Source: Escherichia coli (GTDB lineage Bacteria > Pseudomonadota > Gammaproteobacteria > Enterobacterales > Enterobacteriaceae). From it: a stretch of 64,000 bases of DNA. Under the pieces are notes generated by a model. The model worked only from the letters and a program-made list of their open reading frames with translations. It was not told where the DNA came from and ran no database searches. Position numbers and translations under genes: made by a program. This document shows positions 17,565 through 42,005 of the stretch, piece by piece. How positions within the stretch are numbered: position 1 is the first letter of the stretch; each line of letters starts with the position of its first letter. The stretch lies in assembly GCF_048403405.1 (NCBI RefSeq), contig NZ_CP183129.1; one strand, given 5' to 3'.

Positions 17565-18788
17565 ATGCGTAAAAAAGAAGAGAATCTGAATACGGCATCA
17601 GGATTGCGTATTGCCATGATTTTGCTGGGTATTGCCGTCACACCTGTGCTGTTGTCATCCTCAAGCCTCGGCAATCAACTTTCCAGCGGCAGTTTAATTA
17701 GCGTCGTATTGTTAGGCGGCGTCATTCTGACCTTACTTTCAGCCATCACCATTAGCGTGGGAGAAAAAGCCCGCCTGCCAACGTATGGCATTGTGAAATA
17801 TTCGTTTGGCGAAAAAGGGGCCATCGCCATTAACATTTTGATGGCGATAAGTCTGTTCGGCTGGATTGCCGTTACCGCCAATATGTTTGGTCATTCGGTA
17901 CATGACTTACTGGCTCAACATGGACTGGAAGTTCCACTGGCACTGTTAGTGGCGGCTGGCTGTGTCATTTTTGTCGCCTCTACGGCATTTGGCTTTGCCG
18001 TTCTGGGAAAAATTGCCCAGGTTGCCGTGCCGGTTATCGCGCTGGTGCTGTGTTACATCCTCTATGTGGCAACCCATACCGAAGTGGCAGTACCAGCGGC
18101 GATTGTGGAGATGAATACAGGTGTCGCCGTTTCCACCGTTGTTGGCACCATTATTGTGCTGGTTGCCACACTGCCTGATTTCGGTAGTTTTGTGCATAAC
18201 CGCAAACATGCACTGATTGCCGCAGGCGTGACGTTTCTGGTTGCCTACCCTCTGCTCTACTGGGCGGGTGCAACGCCGAGCGCCATTAGTGGTCAGGGAT
18301 CTTTACTGGGTGCGATGGCGGTATTCGGTGCGGTTCTGCCTGCGGCGCTGTTGTTGATTTTCGCCTGCGTCACCGGTAACGCGGGCAATATGTTCCAGGG
18401 CACGCTGGTGGTTTCCACACTGCTTACCCGCTTTCCCAAATGGCAGATTACCGTGGCGCTGGGTATCCTTTCCGCCATCGTAGGCAGTATGGATATTATG
18501 GCGTGGTTTATTCCGTTTCTGCTGTTCCTGGGTATCGCCACGCCACCCGTTGCCGGAATTTATATCGCTGACTTTTTCCTTTATCGCCGTAATGGCTATC
18601 AAGAGTCAGTGTTAGCCCAGGAGTCACAGATTAAAGTGCTGACATTCGCAGCATGGATCATAGGCGCAGCGGTTGGCTTTATGACCGTAAAAGGCTTATT
18701 CACCCTGACGACGATCCCTTCGGTAGACTCGATTCTGGTGGCATGTATCGCGTATGCGATTCTCAGTCGGGCAAGTCAACACCGCTAA
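17565..18788 (+). CDS. NCS1-family nucleobase/hydantoin-type permease (CodB-like)
   Basis: 407-aa polytopic membrane protein (about 12 hydrophobic segments) with length and organisation like the cytosine permease CodB. Confidence 0.75.
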   Translation: MRKKEENLNTASGLRIAMILLGIAVTPVLLSSSSLGNQLSSGSLISVVLLGGVILTLLSAITISVGEKARLPTYGIVKYSFGEKGAIAINILMAISLFGWIAVTANMFGHSVHDLLAQHGLEVPLALLVAAGCVIFVASTAFGFAVLGKIAQVAVPVIALVLCYILYVATHTEVAVPAAIVEMNTGVAVSTVVGTIIVLVATLPDFGSFVHNRKHALIAAGVTFLVAYPLLYWAGATPSAISGQGSLLGAMAVFGAVLPAALLLIFACVTGNAGNMFQGTLVVSTLLTRFPKWQITVALGILSAIVGSMDIMAWFIPFLLFLGIATPPVAGIYIADFFLYRRNGYQESVLAQESQIKVLTFAAWIIGAAVGFMTVKGLFTLTTIPSVDSILVACIAYAILSRASQHR

Positions 18789-18865
18789 TTCCTGGGTATA
18801 CTCAGGCAATGATTACGGCTGAATCTGGAGAGATTCAGCCACTTTACCACTGACCAGGGAGCCTT

Positions 18866-19771
18866 ATGTTCATCTCAGACGAAACGCTTCGTGTTATTCA
18901 TCTGGTCGCCAGACACCAGAGCATTACCATCGCAGCCGAGCAGTTAAATAAAGTCCCTTCCGCCATCAGTTACACCATCAAGAAAGCGGAAGAGAGCCTG
19001 GGCGTTGAACTGTTCATTCGTAAGGGACGCTATATTGAATTATCGCCAGCGGGAAGTTACTTCATCGAACATAGCAAAACTATTCTTGGCGACCTGGAAG
19101 CATTAAAGCGCAACACAGTGCTGATTCACGATGGTATTGAGCGTGAACTGACAATTGCGGTAAACAATATTATTCCTGGTAATTTGCTGGTGGCATTTAT
19201 TCGAGATTTTGAACGGCAATTCACATCAACAACACTGACGGTAGATCTTGAGGTATACAACGGCTGCTGGGATGCGCTGTACAGTAAGCGTGCTGATCTG
19301 GTCTACGGTGCTCCTCATGCAGTACCAAGTAGTGAAGGCATCATTAGCGAACCGGTCGGACAAATGGAATGGGATTTTGTCGTCAGCCCACTCCACCCAC
19401 TGGCAGCGAAGCGGCATCCATTAGAAAACAGTGAATTGCGTCATTATCCAGCGGTTTGTATCCGCGATACCTCCGTTAACTTCCCCCCGATGCAAGCCTG
19501 GTTGTTGGAAGGACAAAAACCCATTTTTGTTCCTGACTTCGCTACGGCAATCGCCTTAATAGAACAAAACGTCGGTATTGGTTATATTCCACATCATCTG
19601 GCATTGCCGTTATTGAACAGCGGTAAATTGCTTAAAAAGCCAATGCGCGAACATAAACACGCCACCAAGTTATTTCTTGCCGCTCGTTCCGATGGTATGG
19701 GCAAAGCCTGTCAGTGGTGCATAGAATATTTAAGAAACCCGCAATTAATGACACGATTTGTATTTAATTGA
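18866..19771 (+). CDS. LysR-family transcriptional regulator
   Basis: 301-aa ORF with N-terminal HTH (ITIAAEQLNKVPSAISYTIKKAEESLGVELFIRKGR) and C-terminal LysR substrate-binding domain. Confidence 0.85.
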   Translation: MFISDETLRVIHLVARHQSITIAAEQLNKVPSAISYTIKKAEESLGVELFIRKGRYIELSPAGSYFIEHSKTILGDLEALKRNTVLIHDGIERELTIAVNNIIPGNLLVAFIRDFERQFTSTTLTVDLEVYNGCWDALYSKRADLVYGAPHAVPSSEGIISEPVGQMEWDFVVSPLHPLAAKRHPLENSELRHYPAVCIRDTSVNFPPMQAWLLEGQKPIFVPDFATAIALIEQNVGIGYIPHHLALPLLNSGKLLKKPMREHKHATKLFLAARSDGMGKACQWCIEYLRNPQLMTRFVFN

Positions 19772-19899
19772 CAATACAATGATAAAAATATAAGTCTTGC
19801 TTTAATTAGAGCGCCCGTTTAAATTATTTTTGTGCAGTTGACGTAACTCATGAAAATTAACCGGTCTGTTAATCATTACGTTCACTGCACACCTTCATT

Positions 19900-19940
19900 T
19901 TTTCACACCTATCCACGCCTGAAAACTATGTTATAATCAG
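19900..19940 (+). promoter_or_regulatory. Putative sigma70 promoter with extended -10 (TGTTATAAT) for the RpiR-family gene
   Basis: TGTTATAAT at about 19929-19937 in an AT-rich intergenic region, about 30 nt upstream of the ATG at 19971. No convincing -35. Confidence 0.3.
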
Positions 19941-19970
19941 CACTTTCTGTCAGAATGAAATTTACTAATT

Positions 19971-20816
19971 ATGAATAACATAACCGTAAAAAGTCTGATT
20001 CAAAGCAATTACCCTACACTGCATCAGGCGGAAAAAAAGGTCGCCGACTATATTCTTAGCCACGCACATGAAGTCGTGAACTATAGTGTCACTGAACTAT
20101 CAGAAAAAAGCCATGCCAGTGAAGCGACTATCGTGCGCACCTGTAAGAAATTAGGTTATCAGGGTTATTACCATTTAAAAATTGCATTAGCAAAAGAAGT
20201 CATTAATCCTGACAATAGCTATCCTGATAATACCGATTTTACCGATATAACGTCGCTGGCCACATTTTTATTAAAAAAACAGGCCGAAGATTTAATACAA
20301 TCAACGCAATTTTTTAATGCCGAAGTGCTTGAGTCCATTCTCAAACTACTTGCTAATTGCGATACTATTTTCTTTTTTGCTGCCGGAAATTCAAACCCTC
20401 TGGCCGTTTATGGTGCTTATAAATTCAGCCAACTCGGATTAAAAACCGTTGTTCACGTCAGCCCGGAAATGCAAATTAATGCGGCATATTCTATGGGGAA
20501 ACGCGACCTGGCGATTGGTATTTCTAACTCTGGCAGCACCAACTTAATGGTCGATATCTTTAAAGTGGTGAAAGAGCGCGGTGCCAAATCCGTTTGTATC
20601 ACTAACTATATTAAATCTCCGTTATCAAAACTCTCCACCCATCAACTCAATACCGCGGTCAGCGATAAAATCTTCTTTGAAGCCTTCGACTCCACTCGCG
20701 TTCCGGCAATGGGCGTTATTGATATGCTGGTGCTGTTGTTTATGTATAAAAACAAGGCGCATTACGAGAAATACCGCACCCGTGAAGAGTTTCTCGGCTC
20801 CCGTTTCAAGGGGTAA
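19971..20816 (+). CDS. RpiR/MurR-family transcriptional regulator (HTH + SIS domain)
   Basis: 281-aa ORF with N-terminal HTH_6-type region (SVTELSEKSHASEATIVRTCKKLGYQGYYHLK) and C-terminal SIS domain. Confidence 0.85.
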   Translation: MNNITVKSLIQSNYPTLHQAEKKVADYILSHAHEVVNYSVTELSEKSHASEATIVRTCKKLGYQGYYHLKIALAKEVINPDNSYPDNTDFTDITSLATFLLKKQAEDLIQSTQFFNAEVLESILKLLANCDTIFFFAAGNSNPLAVYGAYKFSQLGLKTVVHVSPEMQINAAYSMGKRDLAIGISNSGSTNLMVDIFKVVKERGAKSVCITNYIKSPLSKLSTHQLNTAVSDKIFFEAFDSTRVPAMGVIDMLVLLFMYKNKAHYEKYRTREEFLGSRFKG

Positions 20817-36356: not shown

Positions 36357-37247
36357 ATGGATGCAAAACAAACGCGGCAGGGCGTATTACTCGCTCTTGC
36401 CGCTTATTTTATTTGGGGTATTGCGCCAGCGTACTTCAAGCTAATTTACTACGTGCCCGCCGATGAGATCCTGACGCATCGCGTGATCTGGTCGTTTTTC
36501 TTTATGGTGGTGCTGATGAGCATCTGCCGCCAGTGGTCCTATTTAAAAACGCTGATTCAGACGCCACAGAAAATTTTTATGCTGGCAGTCTCTGCCGTGC
36601 TGATTGGTGGCAACTGGCTACTGTTTATCTGGGCGGTGAACAATCACCATATGCTGGAAGCGAGCCTTGGTTACTTTATTAACCCGCTGGTGAACATTGT
36701 GCTAGGGATGATTTTCCTCGGCGAGCGATTCCGCCGGATGCAATGGCTGGCGGTGATTCTGGCGATATGTGGCGTGTTGGTTCAGTTGTGGACTTTTGGT
36801 TCACTACCGATTATCGCGCTGGGGCTGGCGTTTAGTTTTGCCTTCTACGGCCTGGTACGCAAGAAGATTGCTGTTGAAGCGCAAACCGGCATGTTAATCG
36901 AAACTATGTGGTTGCTGCCCGTGGCGGCGATTTACCTGTTTGCTATTGCCGACAGCGCAACCAGCCATATGGGGCAAAACCCGATGTCACTGAATTTACT
37001 GCTGATCGCCGCCGGGATTGTCACTACCGTACCGCTGTTGTGTTTTACTGCGGCTGCGACACGCCTGCGTCTCTCAACGTTAGGCTTTTTTCAGTACATT
37101 GGCCCGACGCTGATGTTCCTGCTGGCTGTGACGTTTTATGGTGAAAAACCGGGTGCCGATAAGATGGTGACCTTCGCCTTTATTTGGGTGGCGCTGGCAA
37201 TTTTTGTGATGGATGCGATTTATACGCAGCGTAGAACGTCCAAATAA
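36357..37247 (+). CDS. rarD: EamA/DMT-family transporter RarD
   Basis: 296-aa 10-TM membrane protein following yigI. Confidence 0.9.
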   Translation: MDAKQTRQGVLLALAAYFIWGIAPAYFKLIYYVPADEILTHRVIWSFFFMVVLMSICRQWSYLKTLIQTPQKIFMLAVSAVLIGGNWLLFIWAVNNHHMLEASLGYFINPLVNIVLGMIFLGERFRRMQWLAVILAICGVLVQLWTFGSLPIIALGLAFSFAFYGLVRKKIAVEAQTGMLIETMWLLPVAAIYLFAIADSATSHMGQNPMSLNLLLIAAGIVTTVPLLCFTAAATRLRLSTLGFFQYIGPTLMFLLAVTFYGEKPGADKMVTFAFIWVALAIFVMDAIYTQRRTSK

Positions 37248-37557
37248 AAAATAAATATATTCTGAAAAAATATGCCGACTCTTGCATGAGAGTGGGCATA
37301 TTGCCATGCTGACAGGAGACTCACATAAGGAAAGGCAGAATTTCCAGACGTCGTTGTATATTTTCATTTGCTTTAATAAATTTCATTTTTAGTAAATTCA
37401 GCATTATGTTATTAGCGATGAGCAAGACCAATCATTAACCAAGTTCTCTTCAGAATGTAATGAAAAATGTGAAGTGCATTTCTTTTTTAAAATTTTTTTA
37501 GCCTATTATTTCTTATCAAATTAACATTGCCCTTAATTATAAGAAAGGAGAATATAA

Positions 37558-38406
37558 ATGAACAACATATTAGGCTCATCAATTAATATGCCCTGTACAC
37601 TTTTCGAAACTATTACTTTATTCGATGATTTTTCTGCTGATGATATGCAATATGGGGATATGGAAGAACAAGATTTTCTCTCACTCGGCTTAAGCGACAT
37701 CTCTGCAAAAGTTGATCCTTACCGCCTCATTAAATACCATTTTCCTGGGCCGAATTCTACTTATGGTGCTTTTAGTGTTCCAACTTCTGGAACAAAAATA
37801 TCACAAAGTGAATGTATTGATATTTTATTTGCAGAAATGAAAGATCTGGCAAAAATGTTTTCCTTTTTTGGACAATACAAAACACTCATCCAGGATCTGA
37901 TTGATCATTTTAGATATGGAAATGGCAACAGTTTCCATAGCCAGGAATTGAACTTATCTTTTCATGAACGAATAAAAAAATATGATTATAATAGCCCAAT
38001 ACGTGTAATCAAAGAATGTATCGAAAATGATATTTCTTCAACACCTACGATAGGATACCGGCCTCTTCTCCTACAAAAGATTAAGATCGAATTACTTTCA
38101 TCAAGACTAAATAAATTCAATGATTTTAAAGATAATTTTAATGGCCTGGGAATCAGCATTCATGATATCTCAGCTCAAAAAATATCTCTTTTAAGTTTTC
38201 AAAAATACGCTATAGGATGGAGTGCAACAATTCATTTTGTAGCACAGGACCACTTCGGTCTTGATGTAACTGATATCAAAAACAAGACTTACAGCAAATA
38301 TAGATTTTTTCGCATATGGTTCTTTTTACAACGGCATAAAGACTTTGCTTTCAAACCTTTTTTCACCAATTTTAACACTATCGAAAGAATCGAAAATTAT
38401 CTATGA
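37558..38406 (+). CDS. Hypothetical cytoplasmic protein, 282 aa, in a low-GC two-gene module (possibly DUF3289-like; unverified)
   Basis: Clean ORF with AAGGAGA SD (37545-37551), acidic N-terminus, no signal peptide. Strongly AT-rich codon usage unlike the flanking rarD/corA. Confidence 0.6.
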   Translation: MNNILGSSINMPCTLFETITLFDDFSADDMQYGDMEEQDFLSLGLSDISAKVDPYRLIKYHFPGPNSTYGAFSVPTSGTKISQSECIDILFAEMKDLAKMFSFFGQYKTLIQDLIDHFRYGNGNSFHSQELNLSFHERIKKYDYNSPIRVIKECIENDISSTPTIGYRPLLLQKIKIELLSSRLNKFNDFKDNFNGLGISIHDISAQKISLLSFQKYAIGWSATIHFVAQDHFGLDVTDIKNKTYSKYRFFRIWFFLQRHKDFAFKPFFTNFNTIERIENYL

Positions 38407-38894
38407 AAAACAAACTCCAGAAAATTATATTATGTTTATTTCTTCTATGCTGCATCTATAATTTATGGACATTGCGTCCTGTACAGATTTTGTATACATA
38501 CTCTGATGCTGGCAATTCAGTCTTTCTGGTCGTTGATCATCTGCCATGGACTGACAGCGATAAAATAAATTGGTATCTGAAGCATCAGAATGAAATTAAA
38601 AATCAACATCCCCTACCAGAAGGTAGTTGGCATACCTGGTATGTCATTGATATCGGTAATGGCTTCACTGACTATAAAAAATATATCGAAGGGCCGTATG
38701 AAGATCTCTACTGTTTCCCGACAATTAAGAGCAATGATAATTGCATCGTGAAAAATTACTTAATGGTTATTAATGAATACCCTTATCGTAACACTCATAT
38801 TGGTATTAACGATTTTACTGAGTATCAATTAACACAAGAAAATAAAATAGAGCGAGTTTTCAATCCGCATGACTTTAAAAAAGACAATTTTTAG
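38403..38894 (+). CDS. Hypothetical membrane-anchored protein, 163 aa, translationally coupled to the upstream gene (possibly DUF943-like; unverified)
   Basis: Start overlaps the upstream stop (ATGA at 38403-38406). N-terminal hydrophobic segment IILCLFLLCCIYNLW, then a soluble domain. Same AT-rich composition. Confidence 0.6.
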   Translation: MKNKLQKIILCLFLLCCIYNLWTLRPVQILYTYSDAGNSVFLVVDHLPWTDSDKINWYLKHQNEIKNQHPLPEGSWHTWYVIDIGNGFTDYKKYIEGPYEDLYCFPTIKSNDNCIVKNYLMVINEYPYRNTHIGINDFTEYQLTQENKIERVFNPHDFKKDNF

Positions 38895-38935
38895 AAATAA
38901 GCCGGATAAAAAAATAGCTTTATCCGGCACTCATA

Positions 38936-39886
38936 TTACAACCAGTTCTTCCGCTTAAAATACAGATACGGTGCCAGGCCCGCGAGGATCATAAAGATAA
39001 TCGCGCCAGGGTAGCCGAAACTCCACTTCAGTTCCGGCATAAACTCAAAGTTCATCCCGTAGCTGGAAGCAACCAGCGTTGGCGGCAGGAACACGACGGA
39101 TACCACCGAGAAGATTTTGATGATGCGGTTCTGCTCGATGTTGATAAAGCCCATCGCCGCCTGCATCAGGAAGTTCACCTTCTGGAACAGGGATTCGTTA
39201 TGCGGCAGCAGGGATTCGATATCTCGCAGGATTTCACGCGCCTGCTCCAGTTGACCACCCGGTAAACGCGCCTTGCGTACCAGGAAGTTGAGCGCACGCT
39301 GGGTATCCATCAGACACAGGCGAACTTTCCAGCCGATATCTTCCAGTTCCGCCAGCGTGGAGAGCGCCTCGTCGTACTCATCGCCCTGATGCCCTTCCAT
39401 AATTACCCGGCTCAACTGCTCCAGGTCGCTGTAGATATTTTCAATTTCATCTGCCAACTGTTCGATTTTGGTTTCGAACAGATCCAGCAGCAGCTCGTAG
39501 GCATTACCGTCTACCATCGACTGGCTACGGGCACGCATACGATATAGACGAAAAGCGGGCAGTTCACGCTCACGCAGAGTAAACAGACGACCATCACGGA
39601 TGGTAAATGCCACAGTGGAGTTACCGGCGTGATCTTCCGCATCTTCAAAGAAGAAGAAGGAGTGAATATGCAGGCCGTCATCGTCTTCAAAGAAACGTGC
39701 CGATGCTTCGATGTCTTCCAGTTCCGGGCGGGTTGCCAGGCTCTGGCCAAGTTCAGATTGTACGCGCAGTCGCTCGTCGTCGTCCGGTTCGACAAGATCA
39801 ATCCATACTGCATTTACAAGGGGTTGTGACTCTTCGACTTCCAGCCGGGTCAGTCGGTTATTTTCCAGTTGAAATGCGCTCAGCAT
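38936..39886 (-). CDS. corA: Magnesium/cobalt transporter CorA
   Basis: ORF open to 39901; canonical 316-aa start [15 protein letters not shown]; C-terminal TM helices with the YGMNF motif. Confidence 0.95.
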
Positions 39887-40255
39887 GACCGGGACTCCCA
39901 ATGCTTAAAATATCGGACAGTTCGGTGGGCACACAGAAACAAATTGGGTTTCAGACCATTAAACAGCCTGACTCAGCGCGACGGGAAAAATTGAGGTCGC
40001 TGACAACCGCTAAGGCTATCAGCAAAAAGGGATAGCCTTAGGAGTTGATCCTGGATGACAGGATAGTGAGCCAGTATCTACTGGGTGTGTCCAAGGCGAA
40101 TGTCCTCTTAGAGTGATCGTGCGCGCATGTTACGCCAGCAAAATTTTGCCGTCAACACGCAACAGAACACCACAGAACAATAGTTGAACTTCGCGCTTTT
40201 TGGTACTCGTCAAGGTCGCTAACAGGATAAAAAAATCCCACATCCAGGACCTATA

Positions 40256-41020
40256 ATGGCGCATCGGCTACTCATTGGTAAAGGAATGATCACCTTGAAT
40301 CTCAAACGGATTTTTCTCACCCTCACCTTACTTCCCTTGTTTGCTGTTGCCGCTGATGATTGCGCACTCTCAGATCCGGCGCTGACCGTACAGGCGTATA
40401 TCGTTAATCCTCAAACAGAGCGGGTGAAAATGTACTGGCAAAAAGCCAATGGCGAAGCGTGGGGAACGTTACATGCTCTGCTGGCGGATATTAATAGTCA
40501 GGGTCAGGTGCAGATGGCGATGAACGGCGGCATCTATGATGAAAGCTATGCGCCGCTCGGTTTGTACATCGAAAACGGTCAGCAGAAGGTGGCGTTAAAT
40601 CTCGCTTCAGGTGAAGGGAATTTCTTTATTCGTCCTGGCGGCGTGTTTTATGTCGCGGGAGATAAAGTCGGCATCGTTCGTCTGGATGCCTTTAAAACCA
40701 GTAAAGAGATTCAGTTTGCGGTGCAGTCAGGGCCAATGTTGATGGAAAACGGCGTAATTAATCCGCGTATTCATCCCAACGTCGCCTCACGTAAAATTCG
40801 TAACGGTGTTGGGATTAATAAACAAGGGAACGCCGTGTTTTTGTTGAGCCAGCAGGCGACAAATTTTTATGATTTTGCCTGTTATGCCAAAGCGAAACTG
40901 AACGTTGAGCAGCTGCTTTATCTTGATGGCACAATTTCACATATGTATATGAAAGGCTGGGCAATCCCGTGGCAACGCTATCCTTTTGTTACCATGATTT
41001 CCGTCGAGCGGAAAGGTTAA
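40256..41020 (+). CDS. yigE: DUF2233-family protein YigE (signal-peptide protein)
   Basis: 254-aa ORF with a hydrophobic N-terminal region (IFLTLTLLPLFAVAADD); position next to corA matches yigE. Confidence 0.75.
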   Translation: MAHRLLIGKGMITLNLKRIFLTLTLLPLFAVAADDCALSDPALTVQAYIVNPQTERVKMYWQKANGEAWGTLHALLADINSQGQVQMAMNGGIYDESYAPLGLYIENGQQKVALNLASGEGNFFIRPGGVFYVAGDKVGIVRLDAFKTSKEIQFAVQSGPMLMENGVINPRIHPNVASRKIRNGVGINKQGNAVFLLSQQATNFYDFACYAKAKLNVEQLLYLDGTISHMYMKGWAIPWQRYPFVTMISVERKG

Positions 41021-41102: not shown

Positions 41103-42005
41103 ATGAAAAAAACGCTCGCAACGTTATTTTTATTAACGTGTCTGGGATCATCATCCGCCTATGCAGATAACGCTTTGATTTTACAAACTGATTTTAGCCT
41201 GAAAGATGGTGCCGTCTCGGCGATGAAAGGGGTCGCATTCGGCGTTGACCATAATCTTAAAATCTTTGATTTAACACACGAAATTCCACCGTATAACATC
41301 TGGGAAGGCGCTTATCGCCTGTATCAGACTGCCAGTTACTGGCCGCAAGGTTCGGTGTTTGTTAGCGTGGTCGATCCGGGCGTAGGCACTGACCGTAAAT
41401 CGGTGGTGCTAAAAACCAAAAACGGTCAGTACTTCGTTTCACCAGATAACGGTACGCTCACTTTGGTGGCACAAACTCTGGGTATTGATAGCGTCCGGGA
41501 AATCGACGAAAAAGCTAACCGCCTGAAAGGTTCTGAAAAGTCATATACCTTCCACGGTCGTGACGTGTATGCCTACACCGGTGCGCGTCTGGCTTCCGGG
41601 GCGATTACGTTCGAACAGGTGGGGCCAGAGCTTCCTGCAAAAGTTGTCGAACTTTCTTATCAGAAAGCAAAAGCAACAAAAGGTGAAGTGAAGGGCAATA
41701 TCCCGATTCTCGATATTCAGTACGGCAACGTCTGGAGCAATATCAGCGACGAGTTGCTGAATCAGGCAGGAATCAAACTCAACGACACGTTGTGTGTGAC
41801 CATTTCCGAAGGTTCCCAGCAAAAATACGCAGGGAAAATGCCGTATGTCGCAAGCTTCGGCGATGTGCCGGAAGGCCAGCCGATGGTGTATCTGAACAGC
41901 TTATTGAATGTTTCCGTGGCGCTGAATATGGATAATTTTGCGCAGAAACATCAGGTTGCGTCTGGTGCTGACTGGAATATTGATGTGAAGAAGTGCGCTA
42001 AGTAA
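41103..42005 (+). CDS. DUF62-family protein (SAM hydroxide adenosyltransferase / fluorinase-chlorinase-like fold) with predicted signal peptide
   Basis: 300-aa ORF. N-terminus MKKTLATLFLLTCLGSSSAYA looks like a cleavable Sec signal; the mature part begins DNALILQTDFSLKDGAVSAMKGV, resembling the conserved N-terminal motif of SAM-hydrolase DUF62 proteins as I recall it. Confidence 0.65.
   Translation: MKKTLATLFLLTCLGSSSAYADNALILQTDFSLKDGAVSAMKGVAFGVDHNLKIFDLTHEIPPYNIWEGAYRLYQTASYWPQGSVFVSVVDPGVGTDRKSVVLKTKNGQYFVSPDNGTLTLVAQTLGIDSVREIDEKANRLKGSEKSYTFHGRDVYAYTGARLASGAITFEQVGPELPAKVVELSYQKAKATKGEVKGNIPILDIQYGNVWSNISDELLNQAGIKLNDTLCVTISEGSQQKYAGKMPYVASFGDVPEGQPMVYLNSLLNVSVALNMDNFAQKHQVASGADWNIDVKKCAK

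Follow-up and report, generated by a model that had tools for sequence, protein, structure and literature searches.

In Yersinia pseudotuberculosis IP32881, T6EC1, a fusion of a PAAR and a DUF3289 domain, is toxic in the periplasm of Escherichia coli (BL21) and rounds the cells, and the DUF943 protein T6IC1, with a transmembrane segment at residues 7-26 and the rest of the chain in the periplasm, rescues cells from T6EC1 (PMC11148199). Based on a Foldseek match to PaeM, a colicin M-like attack on lipid II was proposed for DUF3289 in the same work (PMC11148199). Here we describe a pair of genes of these two families in a 64,000-nucleotide stretch of an E. coli genome (contig NZ_CP183129.1 of assembly GCF_048403405.1; in the following, the window), where they lie between the housekeeping genes rarD and corA. 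We will call them the toxin gene and the immunity gene, and the pair with its upstream region the cassette. We propose that the pair is an orphan, carrier-less type VI secretion system (T6SS) effector-immunity module.

Several further systems are close enough to allow a comparison. In Aeromonas jandaei, an orphan DUF3289 protein (WP_042032936.1) was found in the T6SS-dependent secretome, and deleting its gene together with the downstream immunity gene makes the strain sensitive to the T6SS attack of its parent (PMC12135965). A survey of Klebsiella tied clusters of DUF3289 and of DUF943 proteins to one T6SS type. Orphan cargo effectors of the PIX-DUF3289 type, also with a downstream immunity gene, are described in Enterobacterales including Escherichia and Salmonella (bioRxiv 10.1101/2023.07.16.549128). 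Lastly, from another phylum there is a solved T6SS effector-immunity complex, that of the C-terminal domain (CTD) of BtpeA with BtpiA from Bacteroides fragilis (PDB 9JDI, 9JG8). BtpeA has 608 amino acids, including a large N-terminal part, and its loading proceeds via the adaptor BtapC; the papers citing the structural study are silent on the activity of BtpeA. In the literature searched, no paper dealt with the E. coli copy between rarD and corA, and nothing appeared under the names YPO3983 or TIGR03034.

The interval from the rarD stop to the corA stop, exactly 37248-38935, holds two open reading frames (ORFs) on the plus strand, of 282 and 163 codons, which share an ATGA at 38403-38406 (Table 1). 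An earlier sequence-only reading had seen in these overlapping ORFs a soluble protein and a partner with a single N-terminal membrane anchor, and had tentatively likened them to DUF3289/DUF943 pairs; the hydrophobicity profiles bear out the former and the Pfam searches the latter. In the case of the toxin (32.8 kDa, WP_418511956.1), the match to PF11692 is full-length (E 3.5e-82, residues 10-278, model positions 2-270 of 272), and the NCBIfam model TIGR03034, ‘YPO3983 family’, is covered from position 1 to 274 of 274 with 399.6 bits against a cutoff of 156.45. The same Pfam scan returned DUF3289 only; the carrier domains PAAR, Hcp, VgrG and PIX are all missing. The maximum Kyte-Doolittle mean over 19 residues is 1.17, thus the toxin has no hydrophobic segment and no signal peptide. 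This exact toxin sequence is found on one contig only (5.47 Mb) and the exact immunity sequence on at least 1,000 contigs. In RefSeq, the two proteins are still labelled ‘YPO3983 family protein’ and ‘DUF943 family protein’.

Searching 1.84 billion representative proteins yielded 472 relatives of the toxin, which fall into three size classes: stand-alone proteins of about 280 amino acids, proteins of 400-450 amino acids with an N-terminal extension, and larger ones that match only at about residues 85-275. When 34 long or distant relatives were scanned with Pfam, PAAR was found in 10, Hcp in 2 and DUF4280 in 1, and several were fused to cell-wall modules (M23 peptidase, PG_binding_1, LysM, SH3). 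The PAAR-fused relatives align to residues 9-274 of the window toxin with about 37% identity. In an alignment of 62 sequences, F233, G234, D239, L257, Q258 and P267 are invariant and D231, H232, D236 and W254 nearly so. These columns belong to the family core motifs QDHFGLDxxD, FRxWFxLQ and KPF, all of which are kept by the window toxin, as is a conserved acidic N-terminal motif with D29 and D34. The earlier impression that no enzymatic motif can be recognised holds only by eye: the invariant core of the family is present in full. As a side observation, the toxin cluster at 90% identity includes many entries of 142-165 amino acids labelled ‘DUF943 family protein’ (e.g. in E. coli F11), probably shortened or wrongly called proteins that come from frameshifted loci.

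The AlphaFold2 (AF2) model of the toxin has a predicted local distance difference test (pLDDT) score of 90.6, and in a Foldseek search of the PDB it gave one strong match, the CTD of BtpeA in 9JDI (E 1.1e-11), whose fold it shares as that of the solved family member. At the sequence level, the toxin-family profile matches 9jdi_A with E 5e-37, and the DHFGLD..D, FRxWFxLQ and YKPF motifs of the two are aligned. The two systems come from different phyla. Sequence identity between the toxins is only about 20% and between the immunity proteins 11%, and the enterobacterial proteins have an extra N-terminal subdomain (about residues 8-80, motif DDxxADDMxxGD) that does not align to the BtpeA CTD.

In the case of the immunity protein, PF06092 (DUF943) is matched with E 2.1e-26 over model positions 1-150 of 151. 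A single hydrophobic segment lies at about residues 5-26 (Kyte-Doolittle 1.79 at residues 8-26), with no lipobox, and the AF2 model (pLDDT 89.4) places an alpha/beta domain after a single helix at residues 2-24. Among 45 DUF943 relatives, V44, H46, D51, W57, G87, C104, C114 and Y141 are invariant. The invariant Cys104/Cys114 pair and the N-terminal anchor fit a periplasmic position of the alpha/beta domain. The model is structurally equivalent to BtpiA, the proven immunity protein of a DUF3289 toxin. Since the toxin and immunity models and the toxin profile match, both partners are homologous to both partners of the 9JDI complex; in their predicted models, the two proteins adopt the folds seen in that crystal from another phylum.

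The toxin gene is immediately followed by the co-oriented immunity gene, and this order is kept in Salmonella and Enterobacter. T6EC1 and T6IC1 share with the window pair the two Pfam families, the order of toxin and then immunity gene, and the topology of the immunity protein; the difference is that T6EC1 is fused to PAAR and lies inside a T6SS operon, whereas the E. coli toxin has no PAAR and stands alone between housekeeping genes. The A. jandaei protein, like the window toxin, is a DUF3289 protein on its own, whose gene lies apart from T6SS genes and has its immunity gene directly downstream, although that immunity protein, with 95 amino acids and a signal peptide plus three transmembrane helices, is by its description unlike DUF943. 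As no vgrG, hcp or PAAR gene is linked to the pair and a delivery domain is missing, the window pair is therefore classed as an orphan, cargo-type member. Altogether, we give a probability of roughly 80% to the reading that the pair is an orphan, carrier-less T6SS effector-immunity module with a toxin acting in the periplasm of the target cell. The suggestion of a toxin/immunity type of module, one of several made from the sequence, is thus upheld by the Pfam families and the structure matches. The effector/chaperone and defence alternatives offered beside it find no support, as PADLOC returned nothing and the small protein structurally matches an immunity protein.

Based on the described homologues, the following mechanism can be proposed. 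The DUF3289 protein, which lacks an export signal, would be synthesised in the cytoplasm and would ride non-covalently, as cargo, on the spike or tube of the T6SS of its host; attachment to VgrG or PAAR seems likelier than passage inside the Hcp tube. Once fired into Gram-negative neighbours, it would damage cell-wall synthesis from the periplasmic side, causing them to become round and die; its target would probably be a lipid-linked peptidoglycan precursor, as proposed for the DUF3289 family. The DUF943 protein, translationally coupled to the toxin, would be anchored in the inner membrane of the producer with its domain in the periplasm, where it would bind and block toxin arriving from sister cells. 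The phenotype of the homologue and the cell-wall modules carried by relatives lend good support to a cell-wall target in the periplasm. Toxicity in the periplasm, rescue by DUF943 and delivery through the T6SS are all transferred from homologues in the literature and would apply to the E. coli copy by analogy.

A number of observations weigh against this interpretation. Firstly, the 64-kb window holds no T6SS and thus no T6SS gene near the pair, and there is none within 10 kb of the Salmonella and Enterobacter homologues (loci L006-L008). Secondly, the toxin leaves no space for a known delivery domain: PIX, which binds VgrG from the N-terminus of the PIX-DUF3289 effectors, needs about 140 amino acids, and residues 10-278 of the window toxin are filled by DUF3289. 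Thirdly, the toxin is frameshifted and the immunity gene intact in strains MS8320 and 214-4, and 84 genomes carry the MS8320 toxin allele with an identity of at least 99%. Fourthly, the link of DUF3289 to colicin M is weak, as detailed below for the bacteriocin explanation.

The T6SS itself was inspected at the aspV island of four genomes, with positions obtained by coordinate estimation. On the supporting side, in TUM14771, the nearest sequenced genome at this locus (its cassette and that of the window are 99.9% identical), the aspV island carries a complete T6SS with tssA-M, two hcp, vgrG and rhs genes, the vgrG product being WP_001550647.1. XJ6.1 has a complete T6SS too. Two genomes speak against a strict link to a working T6SS: EC-JS426 has an intact cassette, yet its tssF is split by IS3 (L019, 33420-36531), and XJW9B263, which has yigG and yigF in place of the cassette, carries a T6SS cluster whose tssM has an internal stop codon (L020, 28440-31874). 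The link between cassette and T6SS is thus not strict in the four genomes, a very small sample; T6SS inactivation seems to be common and not tied to the locus type.

Several of these observations would also be expected if the cassette were a defensive relic, in which E. coli keeps DUF943 against the DUF3289 effectors of competitors and the carrier-less toxin is no longer delivered and slowly decays. The absent delivery domain and T6SS linkage, the frameshifted toxins next to intact immunity genes, and the intact cassette beside a tssF broken by an insertion sequence (IS) element all point in this direction. So does the conservation of the immunity gene, with 98.8% amino acid identity and no synonymous divergence (dS 0) across loci whose toxins differ by 19% in the N-terminal two-thirds. 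An additional hint comes from Enterobacter, where an extra orphan DUF943 gene is present. The state of the toxin argues the other way. Among ten sampled cassette-bearing genomes it is intact in eight (the immunity gene in nine), it evolves under purifying selection with a ratio of non-synonymous to synonymous divergence (dN/dS) of 0.13-0.22, and all its invariant residues are retained. Moreover, the A. jandaei DUF3289 protein, which is equally carrier-less, is a bona fide secreted effector. We consider this main alternative improbable, and note that relic and effector readings are not mutually exclusive across lineages.

A second alternative, much less probable, is a bacteriocin resembling colicin M that works without a T6SS and leaves the cell through lysis, in vesicles or by some other export route, DUF943 being its immunity protein. 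The colicin M family (ColM 2XMX, PaeM 4G76, pectocin M1 8JC1) comprises lipid II-cleaving bacteriocins, and the colicin M immunity protein is anchored by an N-terminal transmembrane segment. Periplasmic action, a cell-wall phenotype and the immunity anchor are features that the window pair would have in common with colicin M, and DUF3289 is called a colicin M structural homologue in the literature. We could follow this relationship only as far as a weak fold resemblance: the match of the toxin model to PaeM in Foldseek has E 0.11, a probability of 0.54 and a TM-score of 0.29. Sequence homology was not detected: the profile of 62 sequences compared with the ColM catalytic domain (ColM residues 121-271, with the sequence checked to be exact against 2XMX) gave an hhalign probability of 0.15% and E 0.4, and a regular-expression search for the catalytic motif DxYD(x5)HR found no match in the window toxin. 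The best local alignment to ColM places H232 opposite ColM H235, which we do not regard as evidence. In contrast to colicin M, the window toxin has no uptake domains, that is, no receptor-binding or translocation domain, and there is neither a lysis gene nor a signal peptide. Relatives are fused to PAAR and Hcp rather than to colicin uptake modules, and homologues are established substrates of the T6SS.

The least credible explanation, an intracellular toxin-antitoxin or anti-phage abortive-infection system, could account for an overlapping two-gene, AT-rich layout in a variable locus. It is hardly tenable, as neither of the two proteins gave a PADLOC family at E <= 0.1, the antidote is membrane-anchored, its domain being predicted to lie outside the cytoplasm and its Cys pair conserved, the homologous toxin was sent to the periplasm by design in the toxicity assay, and both proteins match a T6SS effector-immunity crystal.

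We also determined how the slot between rarD and corA is occupied. The cassette, at 80% or more of its length, is present in 2,626 of the 5,426 complete E. coli genomes (about 48%), and yigG-yigF in 2,408 of them (about 44%); a few genomes, e.g. 214-4 and 98203, have both. As the sequence-only reading had suggested, K-12 carries yigG and yigF at this position, on the same strand and with a guanine-cytosine (GC) content of 0.33 and 0.35 (L002, 3095-3869). Its further suggestion that these genes are related to, or degenerate versions of, the window genes is rejected: YigG and YigF are small multi-pass membrane proteins of 126 amino acids each, and pairwise BLASTP (word size 2) gave best E values of 0.42 and 0.55 over 10-36 residues. 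Thus, yigG-yigF is an alternative, equally AT-rich cassette.

At least two left junctions exist among the E. coli cassette loci. In the window type, a 5' remnant of yigG (about 37340-37390), which lost its start codon through a 38-nucleotide deletion, is joined straight to the cassette edge at about 37390/37391, as judged from a multiple alignment. In the XJ6.1 type, whose left arm occurs in 1,433 genomes, the left neighbour of the cassette is a duplicate of 147 bp of the corA 3' end, as it is in 214-4-type loci (L004, 2837-2983; L001, 3410-3556; L011-L014, 137-283); the window type has lost this duplicate. Further upstream, the XJ6.1-type loci contain an unannotated, divergent yigG-like ORF of 128 amino acids (L004, 2426-2812 on the plus strand) and a small membrane ORF of 104 amino acids on the opposite strand (L004, 1914-2228). 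The direct repeats of 147 bp of corA could enable excision of the cassette through homologous recombination. The layout of 214-4, rarD-yigG*-yigF-corA'-A*-B-corA (A, toxin gene; B, immunity gene), looks like the ancestor of the other locus types, in that a deletion between the corA repeats would give the K-12 type and a deletion from yigG to corA' the window type.

The alleles of the window and XJ6.1 types, the two main ones in E. coli, are mosaic. From 37392 to about 38190 they differ at 5-25 nucleotides per 100, and to the right of about 38190-38200 at 0-2 per 100, through the toxin C-terminus and the immunity gene into corA. At the protein level this corresponds to 86.5% identity for the toxin, in which the N-terminal ~205 codons are about 19% divergent in amino acids and the C-terminal ~75 codons are nearly identical. 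Because of this boundary, the C-terminal quarter of the toxin, with the invariant motifs, is inherited together with the immunity gene.

Outside E. coli, the pair lies between rarD and corA in non-enterica subspecies of Salmonella too, with 63% and 66% amino acid identity, and at another position in Enterobacter. Between E. coli and Salmonella, dS is 1.7-1.8 and thus saturated, against 0.7-1.2 in flanking genes, with dN/dS of 0.13 (toxin) and 0.15 (immunity gene); between E. coli alleles, dN/dS of the toxin is 0.22. Since the site is shared with Salmonella, dS is saturated and dN/dS is 0.13-0.15, the cassette is old at rarD-corA and under purifying selection; it is a presence/absence polymorphism that recombines and not a newly imported element. 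This also divides the earlier conclusion of horizontal acquisition into two parts: the foreign-looking composition is real, whereas a recent import does not agree with an old presence at the same site in Salmonella. As to Enterobacter, the extra DUF943 gene mentioned above (27% identical) lies directly upstream of the pair in Enterobacter sp. (L006, 9335-9829) and suggests an immunity-gene array.

More tentatively, and as a possibility we would not rate as likely, a minimal, carrier-less DUF3289 and DUF943 pair may have been kept at rarD-corA since before the split of Escherichia and Salmonella. It would have persisted as a long-lived presence/absence and allelic polymorphism, alternating with yigG/yigF (possibly immunity-like), with a breakpoint that keeps the last ~75 toxin residues with the immunity gene. 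If true, this would mean that balancing selection acts on an orphan effector and that T6SS loading can do without any known delivery domain.

The module is an E. coli orphan member of a family characterised in 2024-2025 and, as such, no surprise to a specialist; the current understanding of the family is unchanged by our findings. Reading the two products as effector and immunity protein nevertheless suggests what these genes, found in about half of the sequenced E. coli, probably do. The pair is a likely determinant of competition between strains in the gut, and K-12 and BL21, which are without the immunity gene, are predicted to be natural sensitive prey. In addition, a toxin without a carrier offers a simple test case for the loading of orphan cargo onto the E. 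coli T6SS.

Table 1. Features of the rarD-corA interval and its neighbours (positions in the window).
Feature	Position	Strand	Basis or remark
rarD	36357-37247	+	left neighbour
Left spacer: K-12-type rarD-yigG intergenic remnant and yigG 5' fragment	37248..37391	+	blastn against K-12-type and 214-4 loci
Cassette upstream region, AT-rich	37392..37557	+	homology to cassette left edge of XJ6.1- and 214-4-type loci
Toxin gene, 282 aa (amino acids), DUF3289 / YPO3983 family	37558..38406	+	PF11692, TIGR03034, AF2 model
Recombination breakpoint in toxin gene near codon 210 (approximate)	38190..38200		binned differences against L004/L001, protein difference map
Immunity gene, 163 aa, DUF943	38403..38894	+	PF06092, hydrophobicity profile, AF2 model
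GC-rich hairpin between the convergent immunity and corA stops	38901..38928		terminator scan: 11-bp stem, T tail on minus strand
corA	38936-39886/39901	-	right neighbour

The base composition sets the locus apart from its surroundings. Over 37200-38999 the GC content is 0.30-0.35, against 0.50-0.56 in the flanks, which makes this the most AT-rich kilobase in the whole window (mean GC 51%). The toxin gene has a GC content of 0.327 and the immunity gene of 0.333, and at third codon positions the values are 0.27 and 0.35, respectively, against 0.52-0.62 in pldA, yigI, rarD and corA. Concerning expression, a Shine-Dalgarno sequence AAGGAG (37546-37551) precedes the toxin start with a spacing of 7 nucleotides. 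In a scan for the sigma-70 consensus, sites were no more numerous than in shuffled sequence, and an Rfam scan of 36900-40400 gave no credible RNA element. The hairpin listed in Table 1 scores as an intrinsic terminator of corA and probably ends the cassette transcript as well.

Two other accessory regions were observed in the window. Near the cassette, a second accessory gene at 41103-42005 on the plus strand is annotated in TUM14771 as ‘SAM hydrolase/SAM-dependent halogenase family protein’; it is missing from the 214-4 and XJ6.1 loci, in which uvrD comes directly after yigE. Further away, the region 17565-20816, adjoining a transketolase gene, contains a permease-like ORF of 407 amino acids together with LysR-type and RpiR-type regulators, and with its lower GC content (0.42-0.44 at 19-21 kb) it may be an accessory sugar-utilisation island.

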